DNA of 64,000 nt from a virus (Duplodnaviria > Caudoviricetes). Under the pieces are notes generated by a model. That model saw only the letters and a program-made list of their open reading frames with translations, searched no databases and had not been told where the DNA came from. The stretch covers positions 64,001 to 128,000 of the IMG/VR virus record IMGVR_UViG_3300033121_001133. The stretch is one strand, 5' to 3'. A program made the translations under genes and the position numbers. Of this stretch, positions 17,523 through 37,839 are shown piece by piece; the stretch's first letter is position 1, and each line of letters begins with the position of its first letter.

Positions 17523-18854
17523 ATGATCTTGGATCACCCTACGCAGTTAACTCAGTTCAGAGGAAGGACTGTATTCTTGTACCCGGTGTATGGGGATCCA
17601 ACGGTGCACCATAGGGAAGTTAGTCTATTAGCGGTAGTCCTCGTCGACGTGAACACCAAAGAGAGCTTCAGCCTAAGTTTCGCCCATCCAGATGGCTTAT
17701 ACCACCATCCGTTAGATCTAAACTTCCTAAACAACAGCGTGGTATACGCCTACGACAAAGACACACTGTGGCATAAGCGACTAGATAAGCCTGAATTGAT
17801 CGACGTGCAGGCTCAGTACTACCTGTACAGTAATCAGGCGTGCAACTTTGAAACTCCACCAATAGTCAGCTATTACGATAGACTATATCCTGCGTGCGGA
17901 TCAATTGGATCCTTGGTTAGTCTGATCAAGCATGAGGAGATCGCTCGCGAGCTGTGTCAGGACACCTTGGTTCGTGATATTCAGCCTGGTCTAAGTTTCT
18001 ATCAAACCACCCTACTACCAGCTTTACGGCAGATTGAGTCAGCTGGCTTGCAAGTGGATCGAGAGTTGTTCAAGCAGCGATTCGATTTGGATTGCCGGCA
18101 AGGAGTCACTTACACTCAATACAATCCGTATACTACCACCGGCCGGCCGAGTAATCGATTCGCTGGAGTTAATTACGCTGCCTTGAACAAGGAGGATGGC
18201 AGTCGTGACTGCTTTATTAGTCGATTCGGAAATCAGGGCAGACTGGTTGAGATTGACTTCAACGCCTACCACCCTAGGTTAATTGGATCACTGGTAGGCT
18301 ACCAGTTTGGAGTAGACAGTGCCTATAGGCAACTGGCTATCAACTACTATGGCAGCAATCCCTCAGCGGATCAGATTGCTGAGATGAAGGAGGCCACCTT
18401 CAGGCAGGTGTATGGGGGAGTGCAGCAGCAGTATCTATCAATTCCGTTTTTCTACGCAGCTGATCAATTATCTAGACACCTATGGGAGCAGTTTGATAGG
18501 TCAGGGTACATAGAGAGTCCAATCTCTGGCCGACATCTACGCAAAAGCTCCTACACAGACATCGACCGAACCCTACTATTCAACTACTTCATTCAGATGT
18601 ATGAGACGGAGGCTAACATGCTCATTCTAAGCAAGCTACTCCCCCTAATACAGCCCATGCAAACCGAGGCTGTATTGTATACCTACGATAGCATACTGTT
18701 TGACGTTCCGAGGCAAGAGCTTCCGGAGCTTGTAGGTAAGATTTTACCACAATGCATTGATCTGCAGACCTTCCCAATCAAAGTCAAGACCGGTGAAAAT
18801 TATGGTAGTATGGAGGTTTACAACCCCAGTACCCTATTTATAGCAAATACATAG
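17523..18854 (+). CDS. Atypical short family-A polymerase-like protein
   Basis: TTTGRPSN, motif A EIDFNAYHPRL, motif B KEATFRQVYG, motif C YTYDSILFD; no recognisable exonuclease catalytic motifs. Confidence 0.75.
   Translation: MILDHPTQLTQFRGRTVFLYPVYGDPTVHHREVSLLAVVLVDVNTKESFSLSFAHPDGLYHHPLDLNFLNNSVVYAYDKDTLWHKRLDKPELIDVQAQYYLYSNQACNFETPPIVSYYDRLYPACGSIGSLVSLIKHEEIARELCQDTLVRDIQPGLSFYQTTLLPALRQIESAGLQVDRELFKQRFDLDCRQGVTYTQYNPYTTTGRPSNRFAGVNYAALNKEDGSRDCFISRFGNQGRLVEIDFNAYHPRLIGSLVGYQFGVDSAYRQLAINYYGSNPSADQIAEMKEATFRQVYGGVQQQYLSIPFFYAADQLSRHLWEQFDRSGYIESPISGRHLRKSSYTDIDRTLLFNYFIQMYETEANMLILSKLLPLIQPMQTEAVLYTYDSILFDVPRQELPELVGKILPQCIDLQTFPIKVKTGENYGSMEVYNPSTLFIANT
18834..18843 (+). promoter_or_regulatory. 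Late-type promoter motif CTATTTATAG
   Basis: Exact match to the 4697 motif; upstream of ATG 18860. Confidence 0.6.
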
Positions 18855-18859
18855 TTCCT

Positions 18860-19072
18860 ATGGGAAAGAGGGATAAGATGCAGTTACTTCGTAAACTCAT
18901 ACGAAAGGAGGTACTGGCATATCTTGAGGAGCAGCAAAAGCTGCAAGAGATGACTGCCGATGAGAAGAAGGCCCAAGTAAAGGCTGATCAAGCTAACCTC
19001 GCAGCTCGCAAAGCTGCTCTAGATGCAGCTCAAAAGAAACTGAGAGACACCCAAGCTGCTACCACAGATTAG
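18860..19072 (+). CDS. Small helical protein with LIRKE/LQE leader, putative internal head protein
   Basis: LLRKLIRKEV...LQEM; preceded by the late motif. Confidence 0.55.
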   Translation: MGKRDKMQLLRKLIRKEVLAYLEEQQKLQEMTADEKKAQVKADQANLAARKAALDAAQKKLRDTQAATTD

Positions 19073-19074
19073 GA

Positions 19075-19452
19075 ATGAGGTCCCAGTTACTCTGTACATT
19101 CACACACGCCGATCGACTGACCCGATGCATCGATGCTATCGCTGCGTTTTATAGTAGCGGTGTTGCAGATATGGAATGTTATGAGTATGTTCATCAACCA
19201 GACAGCATTGTCTGCATCTACAGCATATCACCATCCTCTAAGAGATTTAGAGATACAATATCAATCAACCAAAAAAGAGAAACGAGCACTTTCTACAGCA
19301 TCAATGCACTCAATGGTCTAATTCGACAACTAAACAGTGGTATCCTCGACCGGTCTTACCGTATCAACTGGCACAACTATGAGAATAGTCTCCTGCTGGC
19401 GGACGGCGATTACGGGTATAAAGCCATCCAAATATCTCGATTGACCCAGTAG
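19075..19452 (+). CDS. Hypothetical protein upstream of SSB
   Basis: QLLCTF...TISI..K.ET.T.YSINALN...NSG.LD..Y.I.W; clean ORF in operon. Confidence 0.6.
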   Translation: MRSQLLCTFTHADRLTRCIDAIAAFYSSGVADMECYEYVHQPDSIVCIYSISPSSKRFRDTISINQKRETSTFYSINALNGLIRQLNSGILDRSYRINWHNYENSLLLADGDYGYKAIQISRLTQ

Positions 19453-19515: not shown

Positions 19516-20283
19516 ATGCCAATTGATCTAAATGCGTTAAAAGCAAAGTTACAGCAGATGCAACAATCCAGCCAGGGTGGATCCAAAAGTAGCGATTTCA
19601 TCTGGAAACCTCCCGTAGGGAAGTCACAGGTCAGGATTGTTCCCTATGCATTTGATAAGTCTAATCCGTTCATCGAGCTTCATTTCCACTATGAGATTGG
19701 AAAGAGAACGATGCTGTCTCCAATCTCCTTCGGTAAGCCAGATCCAATTGTGGAGTTCGCTGAGAAGTTGAAGCGTACTGGGGATAAGGACGACTGGAAG
19801 ATGGGTAAGAAGATCGAACCTAAGTTCCGAGTGTATGTTCCTGTGATTGTACGAGGACAGGAAAACGAGGGAGTTAAGTTTTGGTCATTTGGTAAGCAGA
19901 TCTACACCGAACTGCTGAGCGTTATTGCTGATCCTGATTATGGTGATATCAGTGATCTGATGTCAGGCCGTGACATCACCATCGAGCACGTTGCTCCAGA
20001 AAAGGAAGGAGCCTATCCCACCTTTACTGTAAGGGTTAAGCCAAACACGACTCCCGCTACAACCGACGAGGCTGTGGCTAAGATGATCACAGACGATCAG
20101 AAGGATGTTAGGACCTTGTTCACCGAATACTCTTATGATGAGCTAAAAGAAGCTCTGACTAAGTGGCTTGAGCCTGGAGCTAGCGATCCTACTCCAACTG
20201 CAGGAGGAGTTGCATCAGCACCAACGGTGTCTAAGACAAGCGACGTCACTGGAGCTTTCGAGCAGCTGTTCAACAAACAGTAA
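19516..20283 (+). CDS. Single-stranded DNA-binding protein (T4 gp32-like)
   Basis: WKP..G...VRIVP, PF.E..FHY, G.K.W.FGK.IY, D.GDI.D...GRD; next to recA. Confidence 0.8.
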   Translation: MPIDLNALKAKLQQMQQSSQGGSKSSDFIWKPPVGKSQVRIVPYAFDKSNPFIELHFHYEIGKRTMLSPISFGKPDPIVEFAEKLKRTGDKDDWKMGKKIEPKFRVYVPVIVRGQENEGVKFWSFGKQIYTELLSVIADPDYGDISDLMSGRDITIEHVAPEKEGAYPTFTVRVKPNTTPATTDEAVAKMITDDQKDVRTLFTEYSYDELKEALTKWLEPGASDPTPTAGGVASAPTVSKTSDVTGAFEQLFNKQ

Positions 20284-20286
20284 GCA

Positions 20287-21429
20287 ATGGGTAAGAAAGG
20301 AGCGACTATTCCCGAAGAGATTTCGGGAAGGGACGAGCTGGCTGCAGCTCTTGCCGAGAACCTGAACAAACAGTTTAAGGACTTCAAGGCAGCTCACTTT
20401 CTGGACGGTACAGAGGACACCCCTTCCGATTTATCGGATTGGGTGTCCTCCGGTTCCAGTAAGTTGGATCTAGCCATATCAAACAGACCAAACGGAGGAT
20501 TCCCGGTAGGCAGGATTGTGGAATTGCAGGGGATGGAGGCCTCAGGTAAGAGTTTGATCATGGCTCACGCTCTAGCCAACACCCAGAAGAAGGGTGGGCT
20601 TGCGGTTTACATTGACACGGAGAATGCGCTAAGTGATGAGTTTCTGACTGCAATTGGCGTTGATCTGAAGAACATGCTCTATCTTCCTCTGGAAACGGTT
20701 GAGGATATTTTCGAGAGCATCGAAAACATCATTGAGACCGTGCGGAAGAGTTCTCGCGATCGGCTAGTTACAATCGTAGTGGATTCCATTTCCGGAGCTT
20801 CAACTAAGATTGAGCAGGAAGCTGACTATGATAAGGATGGTTGGGCAACGTCCAAAGCCATCTTGATGTCTAAGGCGATGCGAAAGATCACTAGCACGAT
20901 TGGTAAACAGCGAGTGCTTCTACTATTTGCCTCTCAGCTGCGTGAGAAGATGGGGGTTATGTTTGGAGACAAATACACGACCTCCGGCGGAAAGGCTCTT
21001 GGATTCCACGCTAGTGTTCGGGTTAGGCTGAAGAGTCTTGGTAAGATCAAGTCTGGTAAGGGTGCTACTGAGCAAGTAATTGGATCTCAAACAGAGGCGT
21101 CGATTATCAAGAATAGGTGTGGACCGCCCTTCCGTAAGGCTGTGTTTAACATCTACTTCAATTCGGGCATTGATGATGCATCTAGTTGGCTAGAAACTCT
21201 CGTTGACTATGGTATAATCAAACAGTCAGGATCGTACTACACACTAATCAATGAGGACACAGCTGAAGAGATTCGCTTTCAATCTAAAGACTGGGTGGAG
21301 ATCCTCCAGCAGCAGCACAACAAAGACTTCTGCTATAAGAAGCTGTGCGATATCTACGTGATGAAGTATAGATCCCAGGATATGGTAGATAGGGATCAGC
21401 TGACTATAGAGGAAGACAGCGAATACTAA
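20287..21429 (+). CDS. recA: RecA/UvsX recombinase
   Basis: GG.P.GRIVEL.G.EASGKS Walker A, YIDTENAL, IVVDS, TTSGGKAL.FHASVR, KNR..PPFR. Confidence 0.95.
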   Translation: MGKKGATIPEEISGRDELAAALAENLNKQFKDFKAAHFLDGTEDTPSDLSDWVSSGSSKLDLAISNRPNGGFPVGRIVELQGMEASGKSLIMAHALANTQKKGGLAVYIDTENALSDEFLTAIGVDLKNMLYLPLETVEDIFESIENIIETVRKSSRDRLVTIVVDSISGASTKIEQEADYDKDGWATSKAILMSKAMRKITSTIGKQRVLLLFASQLREKMGVMFGDKYTTSGGKALGFHASVRVRLKSLGKIKSGKGATEQVIGSQTEASIIKNRCGPPFRKAVFNIYFNSGIDDASSWLETLVDYGIIKQSGSYYTLINEDTAEEIRFQSKDWVEILQQQHNKDFCYKKLCDIYVMKYRSQDMVDRDQLTIEEDSEY

Positions 21430-21474: not shown

Positions 21475-22533
21475 ATGAAGAATTACCTTGACTTATTTAA
21501 CCGGTTACAAGCCGGCGGACCACAACAAGACGAGCACCCTAATTCCAGGGTGCTCGTTGTTGATGGACTCAACACCTTCATTAGATCGTATTCAGTTAGT
21601 CCGGTGACTAATACCAACGGAGAGCATGTGGGCGGCATAGCTGGATTCCTGCTTAGTGTTGGTCACGCAATCAAGACAATCAATCCCACTAGGGTGGTAG
21701 TTGTGTTCGATGGTAAGGATGGATCAGCCAAGAGGAGGGCTTTATACTCTGAGTACAAGGCTCATCGCAAGCTCAAGGTTCGCTTGAATCGGTCAGACTC
21801 CGTAGATAAGGAGGATAATCAACTCAAGCAGCTGATGAGAGTGCTAGACTACCTCAGCGTGCTTCCCACCACCACCCTGATTGTGGATAGATCGGAGGCC
21901 GATGATGTGATAGCTTATATTGCCAGGTCCTACTTTGAAGGTAAAGACAGTCAGGTATTTATTATGTCGTCAGATAAGGACTTCATGCAGCTAGTTGATC
22001 AGAAGACGTTTGTGTGGAGTCCAACCAAGAAGAAGCTCTTCTTTGCTGAAGACGTGTATACGGAGTTCGGTGTGATCCCAGAAAACTTTGCCCTGTATAG
22101 AGCGTTAACTGGAGATGCAAGCGATAACATTCCCGGAGTTCGTGGATTGGGCGCCAAAACCTTACTCCAGAGGTTTCCGGTGATCGCAGAGCGACAGCCT
22201 ATCCACATCGAGCAATTTTTCGACTACGTTACCGTCACATTAGACAGCAACCCCAAGTCCAAGTTACACTGTAAAGTGTTAGACTCTAAGGACGATGTAA
22301 GGACGTTCTATAAGATCACACAACTCTCTGAGAGTATGATCAGCGGGCAGCTTCGATTGGGGATCGTCGCAAGGCTGAATGAGCCAATTCATAGACTGGC
22401 TAGAGTGTCTTTTCACACCATGCTAATTGAAGATGGTATGACGCAGGCACTGAAAAATGCAGACTTCTGGCTAACTGACATAGCACAGAAACTAGATCGA
22501 TTTGCTTTAATGACCCATCAAGATAATACATAA
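21475..22533 (+). CDS. 5'-3' exonuclease / flap endonuclease (T4 RNase H-like)
   Basis: VVDG.N, VVFDG, YKA.R, EADDVI, SSDKDF.QL, GD.SDNIPGV.G.G.KT. Confidence 0.92.
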   Translation: MKNYLDLFNRLQAGGPQQDEHPNSRVLVVDGLNTFIRSYSVSPVTNTNGEHVGGIAGFLLSVGHAIKTINPTRVVVVFDGKDGSAKRRALYSEYKAHRKLKVRLNRSDSVDKEDNQLKQLMRVLDYLSVLPTTTLIVDRSEADDVIAYIARSYFEGKDSQVFIMSSDKDFMQLVDQKTFVWSPTKKKLFFAEDVYTEFGVIPENFALYRALTGDASDNIPGVRGLGAKTLLQRFPVIAERQPIHIEQFFDYVTVTLDSNPKSKLHCKVLDSKDDVRTFYKITQLSESMISGQLRLGIVARLNEPIHRLARVSFHTMLIEDGMTQALKNADFWLTDIAQKLDRFALMTHQDNT

Positions 22534-22534
22534 C

Positions 22535-23905
22535 ATGCAACAACAAGACACCCTCCAGCTTTATGGTACGGGGTTTCAGAATAAGGTTATTGTAGGCCTG
22601 CTTCGCAATAAGCAGTTTCTTCAGCAGATACAAGACGTATTAGATCCAAACTTCTTTTCCTCCGGAGGGTTGAAGTGGATTGTTACAGTGATCATGGAAC
22701 ACTTTGCTAAGTACAAGGTGCCTCCAACAATGGACGTATTCCGGATTAAGTACAACGAGGTGGATCAGGAGGTGTTGAAGACGGTGATCATCGATGCGCT
22801 CAAGGACATCTACAAGCTGGAAGAGGTTGAGGATCTGGAGTACATTCAAGATGAGACTATAAGGTTTTGTAGGAATCAAAAGCTCAAGGCAGCTATCTTG
22901 GAGTCAGTAGATCTGCTGCAACAGGGCGAGTATGATAAGATCAAAATCACCATAGATGCAGCACTTAAAGCTGGATCAGATAAGGCCATTGGGCATGAGT
23001 ATACTGTAGATGTCGAGGCTCGATTCACTGAGAATCAGCGTAATTGTATCCCAACTCCGTGGGACGTTATCAACGAGATTACGGGAGGAGGTTTGGGCGC
23101 AGGAGAGATGGCGGTGTTTGTAGCTCCTGCTGGTATTGGTAAGTCGATGGCACTGGTTAACGTTGCCGCCGATGCCGCCCGCCGAGGGTTGAACGTGATC
23201 TACTATACTCTAGAGCTGTCAGAAGCTTACGTTGGAGCTCGATTTGATTCCCACTTCACAGGAATTCCATCAGGCGATCTAAAATTCCATCAAGACGAGG
23301 TGAGAAAGGCAGTTGGCCAGCTTAAGGGAACTCTCACTATTAAGGGATATCCTACCAAGACTGCGACCGTTAACACTCTATCTGCTCACATTGATAAATG
23401 CATAATGCGAGGAATCAAGCCAGATCTAGTGCTTGTGGATTATGCTGACCTTCTTCGAGATGTTGGAGGCCGTTCACGTGATGTGCGAAACGATATCATG
23501 CTAGGAAACATATACGAGGATCTGCGCGGACTAGCAGGATTGTATAACATTCCATTATACACAGCTTCTCAAGCAAACAGATCGGCTTTGGAACAGGATA
23601 TTATTGAGGCTGATAAGATCGCTGAGGCTTATTCCAAGGTGATGGTGGCCGATGTGGTAATATCTCTCTCACGAAAGGTGTCGGATAAGATTAGTGGCAC
23701 CGGTAGATGGCACGTAATTAAGAACCGATTTGGACCCGATGGATTAACCTTCCCAAGCAAGATGAATATGTCAGCAGCTAGCATTAGCATATTTGCAGAG
23801 ACCTCTGTCCAAGGTAAAGAGGTCAAGGGCATGATGCAGAATAACGCCGAGGTGACTAGACAGGCGCTGGCTAATAAGTTTGCTGAATTAGGTGGTATGA
23901 TTTGA
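22535..23905 (+). CDS. dnaB: Replicative DNA helicase (DnaB / gp41-like)
   Basis: APAGIGKS Walker A, YYTLEL, VLVDYADL, TASQANR, KNRFG. Confidence 0.92.
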   Translation: MQQQDTLQLYGTGFQNKVIVGLLRNKQFLQQIQDVLDPNFFSSGGLKWIVTVIMEHFAKYKVPPTMDVFRIKYNEVDQEVLKTVIIDALKDIYKLEEVEDLEYIQDETIRFCRNQKLKAAILESVDLLQQGEYDKIKITIDAALKAGSDKAIGHEYTVDVEARFTENQRNCIPTPWDVINEITGGGLGAGEMAVFVAPAGIGKSMALVNVAADAARRGLNVIYYTLELSEAYVGARFDSHFTGIPSGDLKFHQDEVRKAVGQLKGTLTIKGYPTKTATVNTLSAHIDKCIMRGIKPDLVLVDYADLLRDVGGRSRDVRNDIMLGNIYEDLRGLAGLYNIPLYTASQANRSALEQDIIEADKIAEAYSKVMVADVVISLSRKVSDKISGTGRWHVIKNRFGPDGLTFPSKMNMSAASISIFAETSVQGKEVKGMMQNNAEVTRQALANKFAELGGMI

Positions 23906-29849: not shown

Positions 29850-30608
29850 ATGCCCCATACACTAATACAACAATGCCCCACCTTTAGTAAAAAGGTATCA
29901 GGTGAGGATAAGCTAGCAATAGCTGAAATGTTCTGTGATACCATTCAAGGAGAGGGTGTCCATGCCGGGTTGCCAGCAACCTTTGTCAGGCTACAAGGAT
30001 GCACTTTGAAGTGTGTCTGGTGCGATACACTGACAGTGTGGCCGTACGGCAATGAGTACTCGTTTGATGAGATCTTTGCATTGTGGGAGGGAGTGGGGTT
30101 GATCAAGAGGCTGGATGAAGGTCAGCACCTAATCCTAACTGGGGGTTCACCACTCAAACAGGAGCAGCGACTGATTCAGTTCATCAACGCGTTCATCAAG
30201 AGATATCACTTCAAGCCTTATATTGAGGTAGAGAATGAAGCTGTGTTAATGCCATCAGCGGAGCTTGAGAAACTTGTGGATTGGTGGAACAACTCACCGA
30301 AGCTGTCTAACTCGGGAATGAAATCCAGGGTTAGGATCAAGCCTGAGGTGATAGATTACATGGCTGCACTACCTAATAGCTCGTTCAAGTTCGTAGTGTC
30401 AGCTCCTCAGGACTGGGATGAGATTGTTAAGGATTACATTGAGCCCTTCTCAATTAGCAAGGATCAGATCATCCTTATGCCTGAGGGTCAGACTCAGGCT
30501 GAGCTTCAGGTTAGTAGACCAGTAGCAGCTCAGATGGCAATTGAGCATCAGGTTAGATTCACTGACCGTCTACACGTGACCATTTGGGATAAAAAGACAG
30601 GCGTCTGA
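29850..30608 (+). CDS. queE: 7-carboxy-7-deazaguanine synthase (radical SAM)
   Basis: E.F..TIQGEG...G.P..FVRL.GC.L.C.WCDT (CxxxCxxC), LTGG.P, SPKL, LMPEG, RLH..IW. Confidence 0.93.
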   Translation: MPHTLIQQCPTFSKKVSGEDKLAIAEMFCDTIQGEGVHAGLPATFVRLQGCTLKCVWCDTLTVWPYGNEYSFDEIFALWEGVGLIKRLDEGQHLILTGGSPLKQEQRLIQFINAFIKRYHFKPYIEVENEAVLMPSAELEKLVDWWNNSPKLSNSGMKSRVRIKPEVIDYMAALPNSSFKFVVSAPQDWDEIVKDYIEPFSISKDQIILMPEGQTQAELQVSRPVAAQMAIEHQVRFTDRLHVTIWDKKTGV

Positions 30609-30647
30609 TAGTAAGACTGGCGTAGTCAACTTGAGCAATATCACCCT

Positions 30648-30923
30648 ATGAGTAGTACGTATTTTCGAATCAAGGTTGTCTACTATGTAGACGGCTCTGT
30701 TTATGGGTTCAGGATAAAGTACAAGTTGCATCCATTTCAGCTGTTTTGGAGTTACTTTAAGGAGTACCATCCTCATGGCAACGCTCTGTCCCCCAAAACA
30801 TTTGCAAGCCTTAAGACTGCAAATGAGTGGGCATCTAGTATCAAGTCCAGAGCGGACTTGGAGCATTTGATAAACGAGCACTCTAAGTTGGTGATTCGCG
30901 AATACCGAGGAGGTTCAAATTAA
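30648..30923 (+). CDS. Hypothetical protein
   Basis: Co-oriented ORF within the cluster. Confidence 0.45.
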   Translation: MSSTYFRIKVVYYVDGSVYGFRIKYKLHPFQLFWSYFKEYHPHGNALSPKTFASLKTANEWASSIKSRADLEHLINEHSKLVIREYRGGSN

Positions 30924-30931
30924 CTAGGTGA

Positions 30932-31165
30932 ATGAGGATTAAAGTTAAGCACTACTCCACTGAGATTGTAGTCGATGAGGCCGTTGATTCTGGTATGATT
31001 GGTCAGTATGGCTCAAGCTATCCGACTAAAATTAGATTCACAGACGACCATCCCTATGTGATAAAGACATTAGAGAAGATGGTCGAGCAGCTAATCAAAA
31101 TAAGGCAGTCAGATGACAGATCCCAACAACCTCAAGCGCAGCAATCTAGGCAAGACGTTTCTTAG
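30932..31165 (+). CDS. Hypothetical protein
   Basis: Co-oriented ORF within the cluster. Confidence 0.45.
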   Translation: MRIKVKHYSTEIVVDEAVDSGMIGQYGSSYPTKIRFTDDHPYVIKTLEKMVEQLIKIRQSDDRSQQPQAQQSRQDVS

Positions 31166-31238
31166 CTTAGGATGGGATTTTATTCCCAAGAGACTAATCA
31201 CAGTCGATTTTGTAGACAACAACCCAATTAAAAAATGA
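31113..31238 (+). CDS. Possible 41-aa protein not in the ORF track
   Basis: MTDPNNLKRSNLGKTFLSLGWDFIPKRLITVDFVDNNPIKK; its TGA overlaps the queD ATG (ATGA). Confidence 0.35.
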   Translation: MTDPNNLKRSNLGKTFLSLGWDFIPKRLITVDFVDNNPIKK

Positions 31239-31708
31239 GATACATAAGTACCAAAATCTTTGATAACTATTCGGTGGCGATTAGACAGTGGAAGGCACAA
31301 CACTCTCACTGCTCGAAGCTGCATGGCTATGCGTTTAAGTTCAAGGTCTGGTTTGCTTCGGTGGAGCCTGAAATTGACAAGCAGCTGGATGACATGAACT
31401 GGGTTCAGGACTTTGGGGGCTTCAAGACTGCGCCTCAAGGCAACGGTCTAAAAGACTGGATGGACCACATGTGGGATCACACTACTCTAATCCAGAAGGA
31501 CGATCCCTATGCTGACATCTTTGTGCAGATGGAACAGATGGGGTTGTGTAAGCTTCACTTACTAGACAAGATGGGAGCTGAGAGCTGTGCTAAGTTGGTG
31601 TTTGACAAGTTTAACGACGTCTTATCAAAGACTGATGCTGGTCGCTGCAAGGTGATTAAGGTGGAGTGCTTTGAGAATGACAACAACAGCTCAATCTATG
31701 AAGAGTAA
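31235..31708 (+). CDS. queD: 6-carboxy-5,6,7,8-tetrahydropterin synthase
   Basis: SHCSKLHGY, W.QDFG..K, WDHT.L, .AE..A, V..FE...NS. Confidence 0.88.
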   Translation: MRYISTKIFDNYSVAIRQWKAQHSHCSKLHGYAFKFKVWFASVEPEIDKQLDDMNWVQDFGGFKTAPQGNGLKDWMDHMWDHTTLIQKDDPYADIFVQMEQMGLCKLHLLDKMGAESCAKLVFDKFNDVLSKTDAGRCKVIKVECFENDNNSSIYEE

Positions 31709-31777
31709 TTTTTGGACCTACAGCACCTCCTGGGGCGATCTAAGCTTTCAGTACGTGTACACACCAACTGTCCAACT

Positions 31778-31933
31778 ATGTGGTCTGTACTAACAATACT
31801 AGCAATTGTGGTAGCGGTTGCTGCTTTAGAGGTTGCCTTGCCGCTGCTTATAGCCTACTTTACCGGAGGGGGACATTCTGATGAGAGCATGCACACTCTG
31901 GACGATGACCCCGACGATTTAACTACACCATAA
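31778..31933 (+). CDS. Small membrane-anchored protein
   Basis: ATG 31778; hydrophobic N-terminal helix followed by an acidic tail. Confidence 0.4.
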   Translation: MWSVLTILAIVVAVAALEVALPLLIAYFTGGGHSDESMHTLDDDPDDLTTP

Positions 31934-31937
31934 GAAC

Positions 31938-32135
31938 GTGCACGAGTTGTTTCATGTGATAGGAGCTTGTCACGATAGTACAGCTCACGCGGATTTGCTA
32001 GATTTTCTGCTAGCAGATAGTCAGATTACTCACTATATTAACCAAGTTATTCAACGCTATGTTACTCAATTGCGATCAAGTATTCGATCTGTTACAGACA
32101 AACGGGCTAGGAGCAAAGGCTCAGGTAGGCTATGA
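31938..32135 (+). CDS. Hypothetical protein
   Basis: GTG start; overlaps the next gene by 77 nt. Confidence 0.35.
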   Translation: MHELFHVIGACHDSTAHADLLDFLLADSQITHYINQVIQRYVTQLRSSIRSVTDKRARSKGSGRL

Positions 32136-32541
32136 TTTAACTCTGCAGGGAGTTAAGCGAGTCACTGGGGGTGTGATTACACAAGAGAAGACCTCAATTC
32201 ATCCTTATGAGGAGGTGATGCCAATGATCAACCCAGCTGGTAAGCCTATGTTTAGGCTGACTAGAGGGGCATACTCTCTAACCTTCGATCAAGGGATCAA
32301 GCTACCTAACGACAAAACCGCCTTCATAAGACATCGATCTAGTATCGCTCGATGTGGATCAGTGATCACTAGTGGCATATTCGATCCTGGATTTGAAGTT
32401 GACCAGATGGGAGCGATTATGATAGTTCAGGAGGAGATCTTCATAGAGAAGGGAGCTAGGGTGGCTCAGGTATACATATTCGAGAATCACCCAGCTCCTA
32501 GATATGACGGTCAGTTCCAGGCGGGAAGGGATATTAAGTGA
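32059..32541 (+). CDS. dCTP-deaminase-family / dUTPase-fold protein (second dUTPase-fold gene)
   Basis: GYDLTL, RSSIAR, GIFDPGF, GARVAQ, YDGQFQ; the deaminase catalytic Glu after DPGF is not evident. Confidence 0.8.
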   Translation: MLLNCDQVFDLLQTNGLGAKAQVGYDLTLQGVKRVTGGVITQEKTSIHPYEEVMPMINPAGKPMFRLTRGAYSLTFDQGIKLPNDKTAFIRHRSSIARCGSVITSGIFDPGFEVDQMGAIMIVQEEIFIEKGARVAQVYIFENHPAPRYDGQFQAGRDIK

Positions 32542-32551
32542 TACAGGCAAT

Positions 32552-32896
32552 ATGCGTAGGTTTATTGAAGTCAAGTTAGATGTGGAGGGTATTCACTGCT
32601 GGTCTAACTGCAACATCGAGGAGGTGGATTACTTGAAGTATCCCCATCGACATACCTTTCAATTCCTGTGTAGGGCAGAGGTTACTCACGGAGATCGTGA
32701 TATTGAATTCATTGAGTTCAAACACAAGATTAAACACTACCTGGGTACTAAGTACTACGATAAGAAATACAAGTGTTGCAACTTCATTGGACAGTCCTGT
32801 GAGAGTTTGGCGGAGGAATTACTAAATCAGTTTGGACTGGTAAGGTGCTCGGTGTCGGAGGATGGTGAGTTTTTTGGAATCGTTAACGCCAACTGA
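32552..32896 (+). CDS. QueD-paralogous T-fold protein, DpdL-like (putative CDG decarboxylase)
   Basis: EG.H.W, LKYPHRHTF (LxxxHRHxF), DRDIEFI, SCE.LA, VSEDGE; lies inside the deazaguanine cluster. Confidence 0.65.
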   Translation: MRRFIEVKLDVEGIHCWSNCNIEEVDYLKYPHRHTFQFLCRAEVTHGDRDIEFIEFKHKIKHYLGTKYYDKKYKCCNFIGQSCESLAEELLNQFGLVRCSVSEDGEFFGIVNAN

Positions 32897-32899
32897 TAC

Positions 32900-32909
32900 C
32901 TACTTATAG
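32900..32909 (+). promoter_or_regulatory. Late-type promoter motif CTACTTATAG
   Basis: 2 nt upstream of ATG 32912. Confidence 0.55.
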
Positions 32910-32911
32910 TC

Positions 32912-33130
32912 ATGCGAGAGAGGATTCCAGGAGGTTTGGCAGCAGGCAAGACTCTAAAGTCTCTGCAGGCTAGGTATCCAGACTTTGACATCAAGGCAGC
33001 TATCCTGCAAGGAGCTAGAGTTGAGATGGAGCACACGACTGATCCAGCAATTGCCGTAGAGATTGCGATGGATCATCTAATGGAGGATCCTTTATACTAC
33101 AATAAGCTCAAGCGTGCAGAAGCAAACTAA
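32912..33130 (+). CDS. Small phage protein (DUF5661-like)
   Basis: G..VEMEHT.D...A.EIAMDHL.EDP.YY.KLK. Confidence 0.7.
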   Translation: MRERIPGGLAAGKTLKSLQARYPDFDIKAAILQGARVEMEHTTDPAIAVEIAMDHLMEDPLYYNKLKRAEAN

Positions 33131-33131
33131 G

Positions 33132-33611
33132 ATGTCAACCTCGGTTATAGAACTCCCTCCAATCACCCTGTTATTTGGTAAGATTTGCAGTGGCAAAAGT
33201 ACCTTTGCAGAGGCTTTATCGTACGTTACCAAAGCGAAGCATATAACAGTATCGGATATAGTTAAGTCCCTCTCAGGGCTGCATACAAGAAGCGGTTTAC
33301 AACTAACCCAGCATCTTGATGAGGCTATTGCTGCGGAATTGGTACGTCAAATTAAAGCGTATGATAAGGTGATTATTGATGGAATCAGGCAGAAGTCAAT
33401 TGTGGAATGGCTGATCAATGAGTTTGGTGATTCCAAAATCAAGATGATTTGGCTGGAAGTGCCAGATCACACAAGAAAGTATCGGTTTGAGGATAGAGTG
33501 GTTGCAAAGGACGATCTTACATTTGAGATGGCCGATCGCCGCGATGCAGATTTAGGGTTGCTTGAGTTGCAAGCAGCGCTTCAAAATGAGTATACTATAA
33601 TCAACAACTAA
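33132..33611 (+). CDS. P-loop nucleotide kinase (NMP / dephospho-CoA kinase-like)
   Basis: GKICSGKST Walker A, VIIDGIR, R..R lid motif. Confidence 0.75.
   Translation: MSTSVIELPPITLLFGKICSGKSTFAEALSYVTKAKHITVSDIVKSLSGLHTRSGLQLTQHLDEAIAAELVRQIKAYDKVIIDGIRQKSIVEWLINEFGDSKIKMIWLEVPDHTRKYRFEDRVVAKDDLTFEMADRRDADLGLLELQAALQNEYTIINN
33567..33596 (+). promoter_or_regulatory. Sigma70-like promoter TTGCAA-N18-TATACT
   Basis: Lies within the 3' end of the kinase gene, upstream of folE. Confidence 0.45.
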
Positions 33612-33627
33612 CACTCGCACAAGTTAC

Positions 33628-34275
33628 ATGGAGCTTCTAAAGAAAGCTAACGGAAACCTTTATCGCACAGAGGAAGAAAAGCAGCACATGATCGAACAGG
33701 CTGCTCAATACTACGGTCAGTTCCTAACCGCATTAGGGTTTGATTGGGCAGCCGATCCCCATAGCGCAAACACTCCACATCGAGTAGCTAAAGCCTGGGT
33801 TCACGATCTAATTAAAGGGTCTCTAAGTGAGGAGCCTGTAATTACGGCGTTTCCTAACGATGAGGGATATACTGGTTTGATTTGTCAGACCAGAATTCCC
33901 GTGGTTAGTCTCTGCGCACACCACAACCTAACTTTCCACGGCCTATGTCATGTTGCATACATAGCTGGTAAGGAAAAAGCCGACATGGTAATTGGTTTAA
34001 GCAAACTCAACCGTATTGTAGATTTTTATGCTCGTAGACCTAATATACAGGAAAGCCTAACCAAGCAAATACATGACCATATTGCTAGACTGTGCGTGGG
34101 TAATAGGGGAGTGGCGGTTGTAATCGAGTCTCAACATAACTGCGTTAAGTGTAGAGGTATTAAACACGATTCCATCATGAAGACCTCTCAAATGAGCGGT
34201 TATTTCTGGACTAATGAGGTTGGTACTCGCCAGGAGTTTTTTCACCTCATCGACCAGAGTCGATTTGGAGCTTAA
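33628..34275 (+). CDS. folE: GTP cyclohydrolase I
   Basis: TP.RVAKA, SLCAHH..F.G..HVAYI, GLSKLNR, RRP.IQE.LT, H.C..CRG. Confidence 0.95.
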   Translation: MELLKKANGNLYRTEEEKQHMIEQAAQYYGQFLTALGFDWAADPHSANTPHRVAKAWVHDLIKGSLSEEPVITAFPNDEGYTGLICQTRIPVVSLCAHHNLTFHGLCHVAYIAGKEKADMVIGLSKLNRIVDFYARRPNIQESLTKQIHDHIARLCVGNRGVAVVIESQHNCVKCRGIKHDSIMKTSQMSGYFWTNEVGTRQEFFHLIDQSRFGA

Positions 34276-34304
34276 TCGACCAAAGTCGTCATCAATAAAC
34301 TACC

Positions 34305-34664
34305 ATGCTAATCAAAATCGATACCAAGGAAAGGTCAATTTCCATAGAGGAGGTTTTAACTTTTGAGCAGCTAGAGCACACCCTCAAGACCCTGTTTCCA
34401 ACCGACTATAAGGAGTGGAAAATCAACACCAACGTTAAGGTAGAGCTTACCAGCTCTCCAATTATTATTCGTGAACGACCTCGCTATCCGGATTGGTGGA
34501 ATAATCCGTACTGGTACTCTACGGCTGAAGTGAAGAGCGTTCCGAGCTTGCTGTGTGATGGAGTCAGTACCACAACTATGGTAGGTGGCACTAGCACAGT
34601 AACCAACGCTAGCATACCCTCCAGTGTTGTGGTTGATTATGCACCAGACTCCAACGCTAAGTGA
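34305..34664 (+). CDS. Hypothetical protein
   Basis: Co-oriented ORF; P/W-rich centre and T-rich tail. Confidence 0.45.
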   Translation: MLIKIDTKERSISIEEVLTFEQLEHTLKTLFPTDYKEWKINTNVKVELTSSPIIIRERPRYPDWWNNPYWYSTAEVKSVPSLLCDGVSTTTMVGGTSTVTNASIPSSVVVDYAPDSNAK

Positions 34665-35470
34665 TGGACTTCTATGTAATCTCTCCGGTAAGCAACCTGG
34701 AGCCGATGAAGCTCGGCGATCGAATCTTTGTACTAGCTCATCTATGGGTCAAGTACCCACACTACAGGGAATTCATCCTACAGCAGAAGGCCGAGGGTAA
34801 GTTCCTAACACTGGATAACTCAGCTGCTGAGCGAGCTCTTGTTACTGAGGACGTGTTGATTGACATCTGCAGGGAGCTTCTCCCTAACGAGGTGATAGCA
34901 CCCGACGTCCTGTTTAATAAGAACGCTACTATTGCCAACGCTAAGTCGTTTATCAATAGAATGCATCGAGAGGGTCTGACTGAGGGTCTGTATAAGGTTG
35001 ACATTTTCTTCTGTCCTCAGGGTAAGACAAAGCAAGATTGGTTAGAGGCATATCAGTGGGGAGTTGAGTGTAAGTACATCTCCACAATCGGATTCTCAAA
35101 GATTGCTATTCCTCAGGCCTGGCTAGTTGATTGGAAGGATGATCAGGGTATTAAGCAGGCTCGTCATATGGCATATGATTACCTGCGAGATCGTAATATG
35201 CTAGTCAAGCCCATTCACTGCCTTGGCCAAGGCGATCCAACTGAGTTTTCTTACTACAACCACCCCATGATGAGAAGTACAGACTCGGTGTTCCCAATTC
35301 TAGCAGCTGCTCATGGACAGGCCTTCAATCTAGATAGTGCAACTAGGATTCCAACTCCTCACGACTTCTTAGAAACCTACGATATGTCCAAAATCGACAT
35401 GGAGCTGGTGGCAAACAACATAGATTTTCTACGCAGGCAGTGTAAAAGCACTCTTAAAGAGCAACCCTAG
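34664..35470 (+). CDS. TGT-fold 7-deazaguanine DNA transglycosylase (DpdA-like)
   Basis: TGT motifs in order: LDNSA (cf. DSGG), APDV, CPQG, IGFS, IHCLG, RSTDS; closes the folE/queD/queE cluster. Confidence 0.7.
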   Translation: MDFYVISPVSNLEPMKLGDRIFVLAHLWVKYPHYREFILQQKAEGKFLTLDNSAAERALVTEDVLIDICRELLPNEVIAPDVLFNKNATIANAKSFINRMHREGLTEGLYKVDIFFCPQGKTKQDWLEAYQWGVECKYISTIGFSKIAIPQAWLVDWKDDQGIKQARHMAYDYLRDRNMLVKPIHCLGQGDPTEFSYYNHPMMRSTDSVFPILAAAHGQAFNLDSATRIPTPHDFLETYDMSKIDMELVANNIDFLRRQCKSTLKEQP

Positions 35471-35583: not shown

Positions 35584-37839
35584 ATGTCACATCAGCAGGA
35601 GAAGAACTACGTAATTGTACGTACAAGAGAGCAATTTGATCAACTATTTTCTCATATAGAGAGTAGCAACCTGATTGCGTATGACATCGAGACAGATAGT
35701 CTGAATCCTCGCAAAGGCTCTATCATTGGTTTCTCAGTCTCAGGTAACATAGGAGTAGGATACTACCTGCCAACCAGGGTATGGGACGCTGAGAAGCAGC
35801 AGTTAGTGGATCTGGAGGTAGAAGGCCACAGCTGCCACAACTTAGCACGTGCTTTGATTCGCAAGTTGAAGGGTAAGAAGCTGGTGATGCATAATGGATC
35901 GTTTGATATACGCTTCACTAAGGCCTATTATGGAATAGATCTGAGAGATGATCTGTATTGTGACACTCTCCTACTACGCCACACTCTCGTGGAGGATGGA
36001 CCGTTTGGATTGAAGACCATAGCGATCGAGTTGCAGAACCATCTTGGATTGGATGCTGAAAAGGAAGCTAACGAGGAGCAGGTGCTGATGAAGCAGAGCA
36101 TCAAAGCTAATGGAGGAAGCACCACAAAGGACAACTTCGAGCTATACAAAGCAGAGTTGGAGTTGCTAGGTAGATACGCTTGTGCAGATACCGATCTAAC
36201 TCTGCGAATAATGACCCACTACTTGCCAATCTTAAAGGAGCAGGATCTGTGGGATTTCTTCTTTGAGCAGGAGGTGATGCCTCTGTATAAGACAGTTACC
36301 ATCAAGATGGAGGAGATGGGAACTGAGTTGGACATGGATCTGATCAGAAAGACTAAGAACGATATCACATTAGATCTAACCGCTCTTGAGTCGGAGATTG
36401 TGTCTGAGCTGCTATCGCTCAATCCGGTCAAACAGTGGGTGATCGAGAGAGCTTGTGAAGCATTCCCTCCAAAGAAGAGAGGTAGGTTCCGAGAGGAGCT
36501 ACTCAACCTAAAGAACCCAGTCAATCCAACCGCGATTGATCAATTTTTGAATGGGGATCTTCCAGCTTCGGAACTAGACCCTCAAGACAGCGTGGGAGTC
36601 AGCCTGTCTTTGTGGAGGATCAAGGAGGGTGGCTTCATCAATATCAGTTCAAGGAAGCAGCTGGCTGAGATTTGCTTTAAGTATCTTGGGATCAAGCCTC
36701 TGAGTCAGACTAGAAAAGGGTCTGATCAGTTTGATGATGACCTTATTGAAGAGCTAAGCAATACCCACAGCTGGGCAGCGAAGCTTCGCGACTTTAATAA
36801 GCTAACCAAGATCAGTAGTGCCTATATCGACAGGTTTCTGGAGGGAGCTGAGGAAGGTCGGTATTATTGGTATTTCAAGCAAGCCGGCACCACAAGTGGA
36901 AGATTTAGCTCGGACTGTCAACAGATCCCTCGATATCTGGAACCCGGGGAGGTTAGTGATTTAGTTAGGAGGTACAACAATATCCTGCGTAGCTTCTTAA
37001 AGGCCGAGCAAGGTCGTAAGCTGATCATCTGTGACCAGTCCTCGCTGGAGCCAAGAGTATTCGCCTCGGTCAGCAACGATCCCAATCTAATCAACGTATT
37101 CCGCGATAATGAGGATCTGTATAGCAGAGTAGCCATACAGGCGTTCAAGCTCAGGGGTATGAGTGCAAAGAAGGATGACGACAACTACGTCAAGAAGCTT
37201 AGACCAGAGCTTAGGCAGCGAGCTAAAAGCATTGCTTTGGCTATACCATATGGGGCCGGAGCTTGGCAGATTGGACAATCCCTAGGCATACCGCCGCAGA
37301 AAGCTCAGTTGCTGATTAACGACTACCTTGAAGGCTTTCCTGAGCTAGCTAGATGGATGACTGATACACACCTCAAAGTACAGACAGTGGGCTTTGTCCG
37401 TAGTCGCGCTGGCCGCATAAGGCATCTTGACCGAGCAAAGGAGATATACAACACCTTTCAAGATCATCTACTAGATCCTCGTGCGTTTAAGATGATGAAG
37501 GATATGTGTAAGTCTGCGGAGCAGTTACAAAAGCTGATGCAGCTGCGAGCAGAATACAAAAACGCCCTGAACAACAGCAAGAACTTTCAGATCCAATCCC
37601 TAGCAGCTAGTATTATGAATAGGTCTGCAATAGTGATTCATCGAGATTTTGCAGAGATGGGGTTGGACGCATACATTATGCTGCAAATCCACGACGAGTT
37701 TGTAATCAACTGCGCTGAGCAGGATGCTGAGAAGGTAGCAGCGATTGTTAAGCATCGAATGGAAACTACGGTAGAGATTCCTACAGGATTGGTAGCAGAG
37801 CCGAATGTGGCTGATAACTTCGGAGAGGGACACGCATAG
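35584..37839 (+). CDS. polA: Family A DNA polymerase with 3'-5' exonuclease
   Basis: Exo I YDIETD, Exo II HNGSFD, Exo III YACAD; TTSGRFSS; motif A DQSSLEPR; motif B RQRAKSIALAIPYG (Leu at the 762-equivalent position); motif C QIHDE. Confidence 0.95.
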   Translation: MSHQQEKNYVIVRTREQFDQLFSHIESSNLIAYDIETDSLNPRKGSIIGFSVSGNIGVGYYLPTRVWDAEKQQLVDLEVEGHSCHNLARALIRKLKGKKLVMHNGSFDIRFTKAYYGIDLRDDLYCDTLLLRHTLVEDGPFGLKTIAIELQNHLGLDAEKEANEEQVLMKQSIKANGGSTTKDNFELYKAELELLGRYACADTDLTLRIMTHYLPILKEQDLWDFFFEQEVMPLYKTVTIKMEEMGTELDMDLIRKTKNDITLDLTALESEIVSELLSLNPVKQWVIERACEAFPPKKRGRFREELLNLKNPVNPTAIDQFLNGDLPASELDPQDSVGVSLSLWRIKEGGFINISSRKQLAEICFKYLGIKPLSQTRKGSDQFDDDLIEELSNTHSWAAKLRDFNKLTKISSAYIDRFLEGAEEGRYYWYFKQAGTTSGRFSSDCQQIPRYLEPGEVSDLVRRYNNILRSFLKAEQGRKLIICDQSSLEPRVFASVSNDPNLINVFRDNEDLYSRVAIQAFKLRGMSAKKDDDNYVKKLRPELRQRAKSIALAIPYGAGAWQIGQSLGIPPQKAQLLINDYLEGFPELARWMTDTHLKVQTVGFVRSRAGRIRHLDRAKEIYNTFQDHLLDPRAFKMMKDMCKSAEQLQKLMQLRAEYKNALNNSKNFQIQSLAASIMNRSAIVIHRDFAEMGLDAYIMLQIHDEFVINCAEQDAEKVAAIVKHRMETTVEIPTGLVAEPNVADNFGEGHA

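Follow-up and report, generated by a model that had tools for sequence, protein, structure and literature searches.

A compact divPolA1-family polymerase with an altered nucleotide pocket, a putative second DNA polymerase for short-patch synthesis in large myoviruses

Large aquatic myoviruses such as Flavobacterium phage immuto have been reported to encode, alongside a regular replicase of family A, B, or C, a second polymerase of a family named divPolA1, described computationally by Yutin et al. 2024 (Virol J 21:200, PMC11348598). In that paper, gene 1 of immuto is the type example, the palm catalytic residues are kept, the thumb is truncated, and the exonuclease catalytic aspartates are replaced; conserved replication genes lie downstream of divPolA1, the regular polymerase is found near GroEL/GroES and nucleotide-modification genes, and 14 phages are listed, with genomes of ~155–190 kb. 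Across the literature, the term divPolA1 was found only in this paper and its preprint. Here we describe a further member, encoded at positions 17523–18854 (+ strand) of a 64,000-nucleotide stretch of phage DNA (“the window”), which represents bases 64001–128000 of the 137,379-bp IMG/VR record IMGVR_UViG_3300033121_001133, estimated to be 81% complete and hence to derive from a genome of ~170 kb. Genes in the window lie nearly all on the + strand and encode a tail sheath, a gp32-like single-stranded DNA binding protein (SSB), a RecA/UvsX recombinase, a Pol I-type 5′–3′ exonuclease, DnaB, a class II ribonucleotide reductase (RNR), a full PolA, and GroEL. Given the tail sheath, replication genes, and GroEL, the source phage can be classified by gene content as a large myovirus. 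As detailed below, we establish the family and fold of this protein, the conservation of its motifs and gene order, and its presence beside both a primase and a replicase; these results are consistent with a reading to which we assign a probability of roughly 60%, namely that divPolA1 acts as a primer-dependent, non-proofreading, low-processivity second DNA polymerase for short-patch synthesis.

The open reading frame (ORF) begins with ATG, is open throughout, and encodes 443 amino acids (aa), which align from residue 1 with homologues of 420–447 aa. A tblastn search matched its product to immuto gene 1 (MW353176.1, positions 1–1326, annotated as “DNA polymerase family A”) with E 3e-39, a query coverage of 92%, and 29% identity. 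The two proteins share their size, palm residues, replaced exonuclease carboxylates, and truncated thumb, along with SSB, RecA, flap endonuclease (FEN), and DnaB genes downstream and a regular polymerase near GroEL, and we found no essential difference between them; the genome size of ~170 kb also lies within the range reported for this family. Compared to the 14 phages listed in the original description, a word-indexed search retrieved 2873 relatives, nearly all of 420–447 aa, an exhaustive profile search yielded 1306 clusters at 50% identity with E ≤ 1e-3 (660 of these with E ≤ 1e-30), and relatives are encoded at 588 or more IMG/VR loci. When searched alone, the 443-aa protein matched nothing in Pfam at E ≤ 1, hit a PHROG “DNA polymerase” weakly (2e-4), and gave a marginal match to Taq (E 0.3); one relative (P0248) clears the PF00476 cut-off (37.9 vs 34.3 bits). 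At the nucleotide level, 10 kb of the window gave no megablast match to phage records, and a promoter and terminator scan around the gene yielded no pattern that could be interpreted, promoter-like sites being less frequent than in shuffled sequence. Judging from the conservation described next, the ORF is a real gene under strong purifying selection; a decaying pseudogene was ruled out by catalytic residues that are invariant over 260 sequences.

Residue equivalences were taken from a profile of 92 family members (~30% identity) aligned to the Klenow fragment (E 1.1e-12), which was also the best of the solved structures matched by this profile, ahead of Bst (1e-8), Taq (1e-6), and Pol theta (0.005), and residue frequencies were computed over 260 members that are ~30% identical overall. 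Five blocks, TGRPSN, DFN[AS]YHPR, K..TF..LYGG, FNY.IQ..ETE, and LYTYDS, are conserved in both 26 closer and 92 distant relatives. The TGR motif (TTTGRPSNRF, 18132–18161, + strand), aligned to Klenow TATGRLSS, contains R208, equivalent to Klenow R668. Motif A (E-I-DFNAYHPR, 18249–18278, +) provides the catalytic D245 (Klenow D705) along with Y249 (I709), H250 (E710), and R252 (R712), motif B on the O-helix (IAEMKEATFRQVYGG, 18375–18419, +) keeps K289 (K758), F293 (F762), and Y297 (Y766), the minor-groove contacts correspond to N354 (N845) and Q358 (Q849), and motif C (LYTYDSILFD, 18675–18704, +) combines the catalytic D389 (D882) with Y388 (H881) and S390 (E883). D245, D389, K289, R208, Y388, and E361 are each found in 260/260 members, the minor-groove Gln and Asn vary little or not at all, and more than 97% of members have F293 and Y297 (Y297 in 257/260). 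With R208, N354, and Q358, the contacts to the primer terminus and the minor groove are thus conserved.

Against this background of conservation, four residues by which Pol I contacts an incoming nucleotide at its sugar or triphosphate are replaced together. The steric-gate position is His in 257 of the 260 members and Glu in none; the position of the O-helix Arg (Klenow R754) is Ile in the window protein and I, Y, V, or L in 241 members, with Arg in 8; the motif C His is Tyr throughout; and the motif C Glu is Ser in 231 members and Ala in 27. The joint loss of R754, H881, and E883 indicates that the whole nucleotide pocket has been rebuilt, so that the enzyme may behave unusually towards its substrates. 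Accordingly, divPolA1 shows the Klenow-like fold and profile match of a family A polymerase, yet breaks three rules of bacterial Pol I, and of well-studied family A DNA polymerases at large: Glu at the gate, Arg on the O-helix, and His-Asp-Glu in motif C. In the available part of Yutin et al., neither the His at the gate nor the lost O-helix Arg is discussed, and the same applies to the 125-aa neighbor described below and to the size of the family. When family A polymerases were reclassified in 2023, into 19 clusters, the steric-gate position was listed among the conserved positions; as we found no mention there of a cluster without the steric-gate residue, that survey apparently did not capture divPolA1. 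The alignments bear out what a sequence-only reading of the window had noted, i.e., a 443-aa ORF with a PolA fold, both catalytic Asp residues kept, His in place of Glu710 in a motif A reading DFNAYHPR, and YDS instead of HDE in motif C. A decaying gene with non-conserved catalytic Asp residues, the outcome that would have spoken against that reading, is contradicted by the frequencies, and its broader proposal of a specialised nucleotidyl polymerase agrees with the family-wide fixation of these changes: the conservation pattern supports an active-looking, family-A-fold enzyme with an altered nucleotide pocket.

The predicted structure extends this relationship to the whole chain. An AlphaFold2 model (predicted local distance difference test, pLDDT, 89.9; predicted template-modelling score 0.87) had the Klenow fragment as its top Foldseek match (E 1.8e-18). 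In a VIA structural comparison, Pol I-type DNA polymerases, namely M. smegmatis Pol1, a Taq variant, Pol nu, Klenow, Bst, DpoZ, phage G20c Pol I, T7 DNA polymerase, and Pol theta, aligned at Z 20–23 over 384–420 residues, with model residues 1–431 placed on Klenow 331–928 at Z 22.6, whereas RNA polymerases (yeast and human mitochondrial, T7, and N4) reached only Z 7.1–11.3 over 254–272 residues. Residues 1–175 match stand-alone DEDD exonucleases at Z 7–8, and only two short helices (134–148 and 157–174) separate the exonuclease domain from the palm, a truncated thumb by the standard of the Klenow thumb. Relative to the Klenow fragment, divPolA1 is ~160–180 residues shorter, its thumb is reduced, and the associated nuclease is a separate gene. 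Based on the difference in Z between DNA and RNA polymerases and on the exonuclease-fold N-terminus, we conclude from the model that divPolA1 is a whole, miniaturised Klenow-type enzyme made of a vestigial exonuclease domain, short thumb, palm, and fingers, not an RNA-polymerase-like core; the comparison with Klenow and T7 RNA polymerase proposed in the sequence-only reading thus came out clearly on the Klenow side. It is one of the most compact natural Pol I-fold enzymes, and one that is abundant in aquatic viromes.

The vestigial 3′–5′ exonuclease domain spans approximately aa 1–125 (17523–17897, + strand). Profile alignment (hhalign) sets FLYPV..D of divPolA1 against YDIETD of the phage’s regular PolA, so that the ExoI Asp and Glu are replaced by P21 and Y23; over the family, the former position is Pro in 210/260 members and the latter a variable hydrophobic residue. 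No exonuclease catalytic motif is therefore left, as had been noted from the sequence. Three other residues of this “dead” domain, H29, H55, and D94, are conserved in 94–97% of the 260 members and lie near the Exo motif I, II, and III positions, a pattern that could reflect a remodelled metal site rather than simple decay.

The genomic neighborhood was compared across 83 loci (the window, immuto, Microcystis phage Mel-JY01, and 80 IMG/VR loci) in which ORFs were called and then clustered. All share a fixed order of baseplate genes, divPolA1, a 125-aa gene (s125), SSB, RecA, FEN, and DnaB, often with an RNR next. Downstream of divPolA1 in the window, and all on the + strand, are s125 (19075–19452), found between divPolA1 and SSB in 76 of the 83 loci, a gp32-like SSB (19516–20283; PF08804, 9e-12; phrog_1192), a RecA/UvsX-like recombinase (20287–21429; PF00154, 2.3e-56; phrog_97), a Pol I-type 5′–3′ exonuclease or FEN (21475–22533; PF02739, 6.8e-32; PF01367), and a DnaB-like replicative helicase (22535–23905; phrog_19, 2.9e-76; PF03796). 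These matches establish that divPolA1 heads an SSB–RecA–exonuclease–DnaB block, as first suggested from the ORFs alone. Among solved structures, the FEN is matched best by the 5′-nuclease domains of Taq Pol I (4e-23) and of Pol1 from M. smegmatis, with T5 FEN and T4 RNase H ranking lower.

The phage also encodes a complete regular family A DNA polymerase at 35584–37839 (+ strand; PF00476, 3.6e-61; PF01612), again in line with the sequence-only reading, with an active-looking exonuclease domain (YDIETD) and the canonical polymerase motifs DQSSLEPR (gate Glu), RAKSIALAIPYG (O-helix Arg), and QIHDEF. That reading had called divPolA1 its paralogue, of which the PolA fold stands but the term is too strong: both hhalign with the family alignment and hmmsearch with a 260-sequence profile aligned only the N-terminal ExoI region to the regular PolA, the polymerase domains are not alignable, and relatives have a family B enzyme in its place. 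A recent duplication of the phage’s own PolA was ruled out, the polymerase domains being without detectable similarity. A regular replicase is found in all five complete or near-complete divPolA1 genomes, of family A in the window phage, immuto, and the IMG/VR genome G001 and of family B in Mel-JY01 and the IMG/VR genome G003; family B polymerases occur in 8 of 11 long contigs, and PolC (PF07733) was not found in four genomes. The family B enzyme in the corresponding role in related phages is an example of replicase swapping. The regular PolA of the window has Leu at the Klenow F762 position (KSIALAIPYG), which we take to be the “Leu762” type of marine virioplankton.

A primase is encoded as well, at a distance from this block. 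Approximately 30 kb upstream of the window start, a 311-aa ORF (G000:C1:32812-33747, with a Toprim match at 33424–33654) matches the PHROG “DNA primase” (1.3e-25), shows weak zinc-ribbon and Toprim Pfam matches, and retains the CxxC...CxxC ribbon, the Toprim Glu, and the DxD motif, from which we predict an intact DnaG/gp61-type primase. Homologues are found in immuto (38% identity), Mel-JY01 (36%), G001, and G003 (the latter two 98% and 100% complete), so that such a primase is present in 5/5 complete or near-complete divPolA1 genomes. The statement that no primase is visible in the block thus stands for the window and fails for the genome, and the suggested survey of relatives for DnaG or AEP did not bear out a primase gap. 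The zinc ribbon is intact in the primases of the window phage and immuto, and three of its four Cys are replaced in Mel-JY01 (L014:1501-2400).

In the model that we prefer as the most economical, divPolA1 would form a split, Taq-like Pol I with the Pol I-type FEN encoded three genes downstream. At the fork, the short-patch synthesis carried out by such a pair may consist of filling gaps between Okazaki fragments and replacing primers, and extension of recombination intermediates (D-loops) made by RecA/UvsX would be an equally compatible short-patch role. The regular replicase, which is exchangeable (family A in the window phage, family B in many relatives), would take on bulk synthesis, with primer replacement and gap filling performed by the pair whichever replicase family is present. 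This would explain why divPolA1 is kept while the replicase is swapped, since a split Pol I pair would serve any replicase family, and the persistence of divPolA1 through these swaps suggests that it fulfils a task of which the replicase is incapable. What we infer here is that the product is DNA and not RNA, that a primer is required, and that synthesis is of the short-patch kind. The closest matches of the two proteins among solved structures are consistent with a split Pol I: the polymerase profile is closest to E. coli Pol I, followed by those of Bacillus and Thermus, and the FEN is closest to the 5′-nuclease domain of Taq Pol I.

Known enzymes offer partial precedents. Taq Pol I has a dead 3′–5′ exonuclease domain, and bacterial Pol I including Taq provides both the best sequence and structure matches to divPolA1 and the type of 5′ nuclease found in its gene block. 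Pol theta and Pol nu, which align to the model at Z 20.1 and 22.6, respectively, likewise combine a family A fold and a dead exonuclease with the status of a second, specialised polymerase beside a replicase. These two enzymes keep the canonical motif A Glu and O-helix Arg, however, and carry large insertions where divPolA1 is minimised, and their sequence similarity to it is marginal (E 0.005 for Pol theta).

Several points weigh against this assignment. Yutin et al. take the conserved replication genes around divPolA1 as a hint that this protein may itself have a central part in replication, and our literature search found no biochemical report for any member of the family. The bias of the structure database towards Pol I weakens the argument that both halves of the proposed pair are closest to Pol I. 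The predicted nucleotide pocket is unlike that of any characterised Pol I, and substrate choice, or even catalytic competence, is therefore not assured. Finally, a complete phage-encoded Okazaki-maturation set is not supported, as a search of five genomes with two DNA ligase models (PF01068 and PF01653) returned nothing convincing, a null result that by itself neither supports nor refutes a role in Okazaki-fragment maturation.

The first alternative is that divPolA1 is the true fork polymerase, with the regular family A, B, or C polymerase reserved for repair, late-stage, or modification-linked synthesis. The vertical conservation of divPolA1 and its fixed place beside SSB, RecA, FEN, and DnaB would fit such a role, as would the swapping of the regular polymerase between families and its location among GroEL and nucleotide-modification genes, a point also made by Yutin et al. 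For a genome of ~170 kb, however, a fork polymerase with no proofreading site, a truncated thumb, and no recognisable processivity partner would be unusual, and the proofreading replicase present in every complete or near-complete genome examined suggests that one is needed. On balance, we consider this arrangement unlikely.

A bolder possibility, which we also regard as improbable, is that divPolA1 is a natural family A polymerase in which the rebuilt pocket (His gate with Pro after it, O-helix Arg lost, Tyr-Asp-Ser in motif C) confers relaxed or different sugar selectivity. It could then work with s125 as a dedicated enzyme for RNA-primer extension or hand-off, in the manner of B. subtilis DnaE or eukaryotic Pol alpha, and the replisome of these phages would necessarily comprise two polymerases. 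The s125 protein is a candidate accessory subunit or recombination mediator; its AlphaFold2 model (pLDDT 93.9) shows a tandem ferredoxin-like fold, and fold searches returned generic ferredoxin-like, ACT, or ABM matches only (Z ≤ 7.2, template-modelling score ≤ 0.58). Six records of the phage collection carry divPolA1, and s125 is found in these six and in no others; as all these phages belong to one lineage, however, the shared distribution does not independently argue for a physical partnership. Scattered weak matches were all that s125 gave against PHROGs.

A more direct use of ribonucleotides, with divPolA1 acting through its His gate and YDS motif as a primase, RNA polymerase, or ribonucleotide-tolerant or RNA-primer-extending polymerase, appears less probable still. 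In its favor, the gate Glu is replaced in 260/260 members, the triphosphate-contacting Arg and His are changed too, and T7-type RNA polymerases share with divPolA1 a related palm and fingers, Ser after the motif C Asp, and the absence of a motif A gate Glu. The gate residue of T7 RNA polymerase is Gly, however, and His is as bulky as the Glu it replaces, whereas gate-opening variants are Ala or Gly; with F762 and Y766 also conserved, ribonucleotide use is not predicted from sequence alone. One such variant, Bst E658A, is present in complexes with rCTP among the Foldseek matches of the divPolA1 model. A promoter-binding domain and specificity loop of the T7 type cannot fit in 443 aa, and the N-terminus is instead an exonuclease-fold remnant, i.e., a vestigial proofreading domain that has been kept. 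Likewise, no Toprim, AEP, or zinc-binding domain was matched in Pfam, and the Pol I fold accounts for the whole chain. An RNA-synthesising enzyme, as entertained in the sequence-only reading, is thus disfavored by the much closer fit to DNA polymerases, and the priming role proposed there rested on the absence of a primase, which the intact DnaG/gp61-type enzyme in this genome and its homologues in all four relatives contradict.

Family B polymerases provide a hint as to what the His may do. The motifs DLTSLYPSII and YIDTDSV of the Mel-JY01 enzyme resemble DFN[AS]YHPRLI and LYTYDSI of divPolA1, and in motif A of both, position Asp+5 is taken by an aromatic or planar residue and the next by Pro. 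The Tyr at this offset is the steric gate of family B enzymes, and by analogy His250 may still act as one. This resemblance is short and may be convergent or due to chance, the fold and all other motifs of divPolA1 being those of family A and not family B, and we take it as a lead, not as a test.

Modified-nucleotide handling was also raised in the sequence-only reading; a specialisation for modified nucleotides or templates, namely the 7-deazaguanine DNA of these phages, is very unlikely. Genes for QueE-like, QueD, FolE, dCTP-deaminase-like, and kinase proteins are found at 29850–34275 in the window, FolE and QueD occur in most divPolA1 genomes, and fdPreQ1 replaces all G in immuto DNA (bioRxiv 10.1101/2023.04.13.536721). 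However, the complete genome of Mel-JY01 encodes divPolA1 and neither FolE nor QueD, the altered residues line the sugar and triphosphate site and not the major-groove side of the base, and known 7-deazaguanine DNA is made after replication through base exchange by DpdA. Lastly, an inactive polymerase fold serving as a DNA-binding or scaffolding replisome subunit, for which the four replaced nucleotide contacts might be cited, is less likely still: over 260 sequences of only ~30% overall identity, little or no variation is seen at the two Asp that bind metal, at Lys and Tyr of the O-helix, at Arg of the TGR motif, or at the minor-groove Gln and Asn, as would be expected of an active site.

The substrate choice of divPolA1 would reveal to what extent a Pol I enzyme can do without its usual nucleotide pocket, and the protein may offer a small polymerase for biotechnology.

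Other features of these loci deserve mention. The region just upstream of the regular PolA (29850–35470) encodes a QueE-like radical SAM protein, a QueD/PTPS homologue, a dCTP-deaminase/dUTPase-like protein, a P-loop kinase, and FolE, which by annotation looks like a 7-deazaguanine pathway with extra nucleotide-level enzymes; a 269-aa gene at 34661–35470 had no Pfam match. Upstream of divPolA1, a tape-measure-like gene is followed by four baseplate-region genes (396, 99, 653, and 226 aa in the window). The slot between divPolA1 and s125 is variable: it may be empty, or it may contain one gene or two, unrelated between phages and often rich in disorder. A 70-aa singleton occupies it in the window (18860–19072), and across phages its genes range from 70 to 790 aa, many of them low-complexity or charged (e.g., L058:2016-4346, L050:5291-6691, and L055:12126-12995). 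Neither the slot genes nor s125, two of the upstream genes (226 and 653 aa), or the N-terminal part of the fused relative P0211 described below had a match in Pfam, and Atlas feature searches with s125 and this N-terminal part returned only unnamed clusters below 0.9.

The same baseplate–divPolA1–s125–SSB–RecA–FEN–DnaB order was found in a 484-kb uncultured phage record (L095; LR756508.1, 230997–252262), which, being far above the reported 155–190 kb, could be either a genuine relative of large size or the product of misassembly. A word-based search revealed no longer (fused) relatives, which is weak evidence as it also missed P0211, found by profile search. P0211 (L009:2680-5487, 935 aa) is a divPolA1 relative fused to a 495-aa N-terminal region. 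This region had no Pfam, PDB, or Atlas match; it contains the PolA-like strings FDIVAAQPSLL, QNTEADII, and VHDS, and may thus represent a second PolA- or RNA polymerase-like palm.

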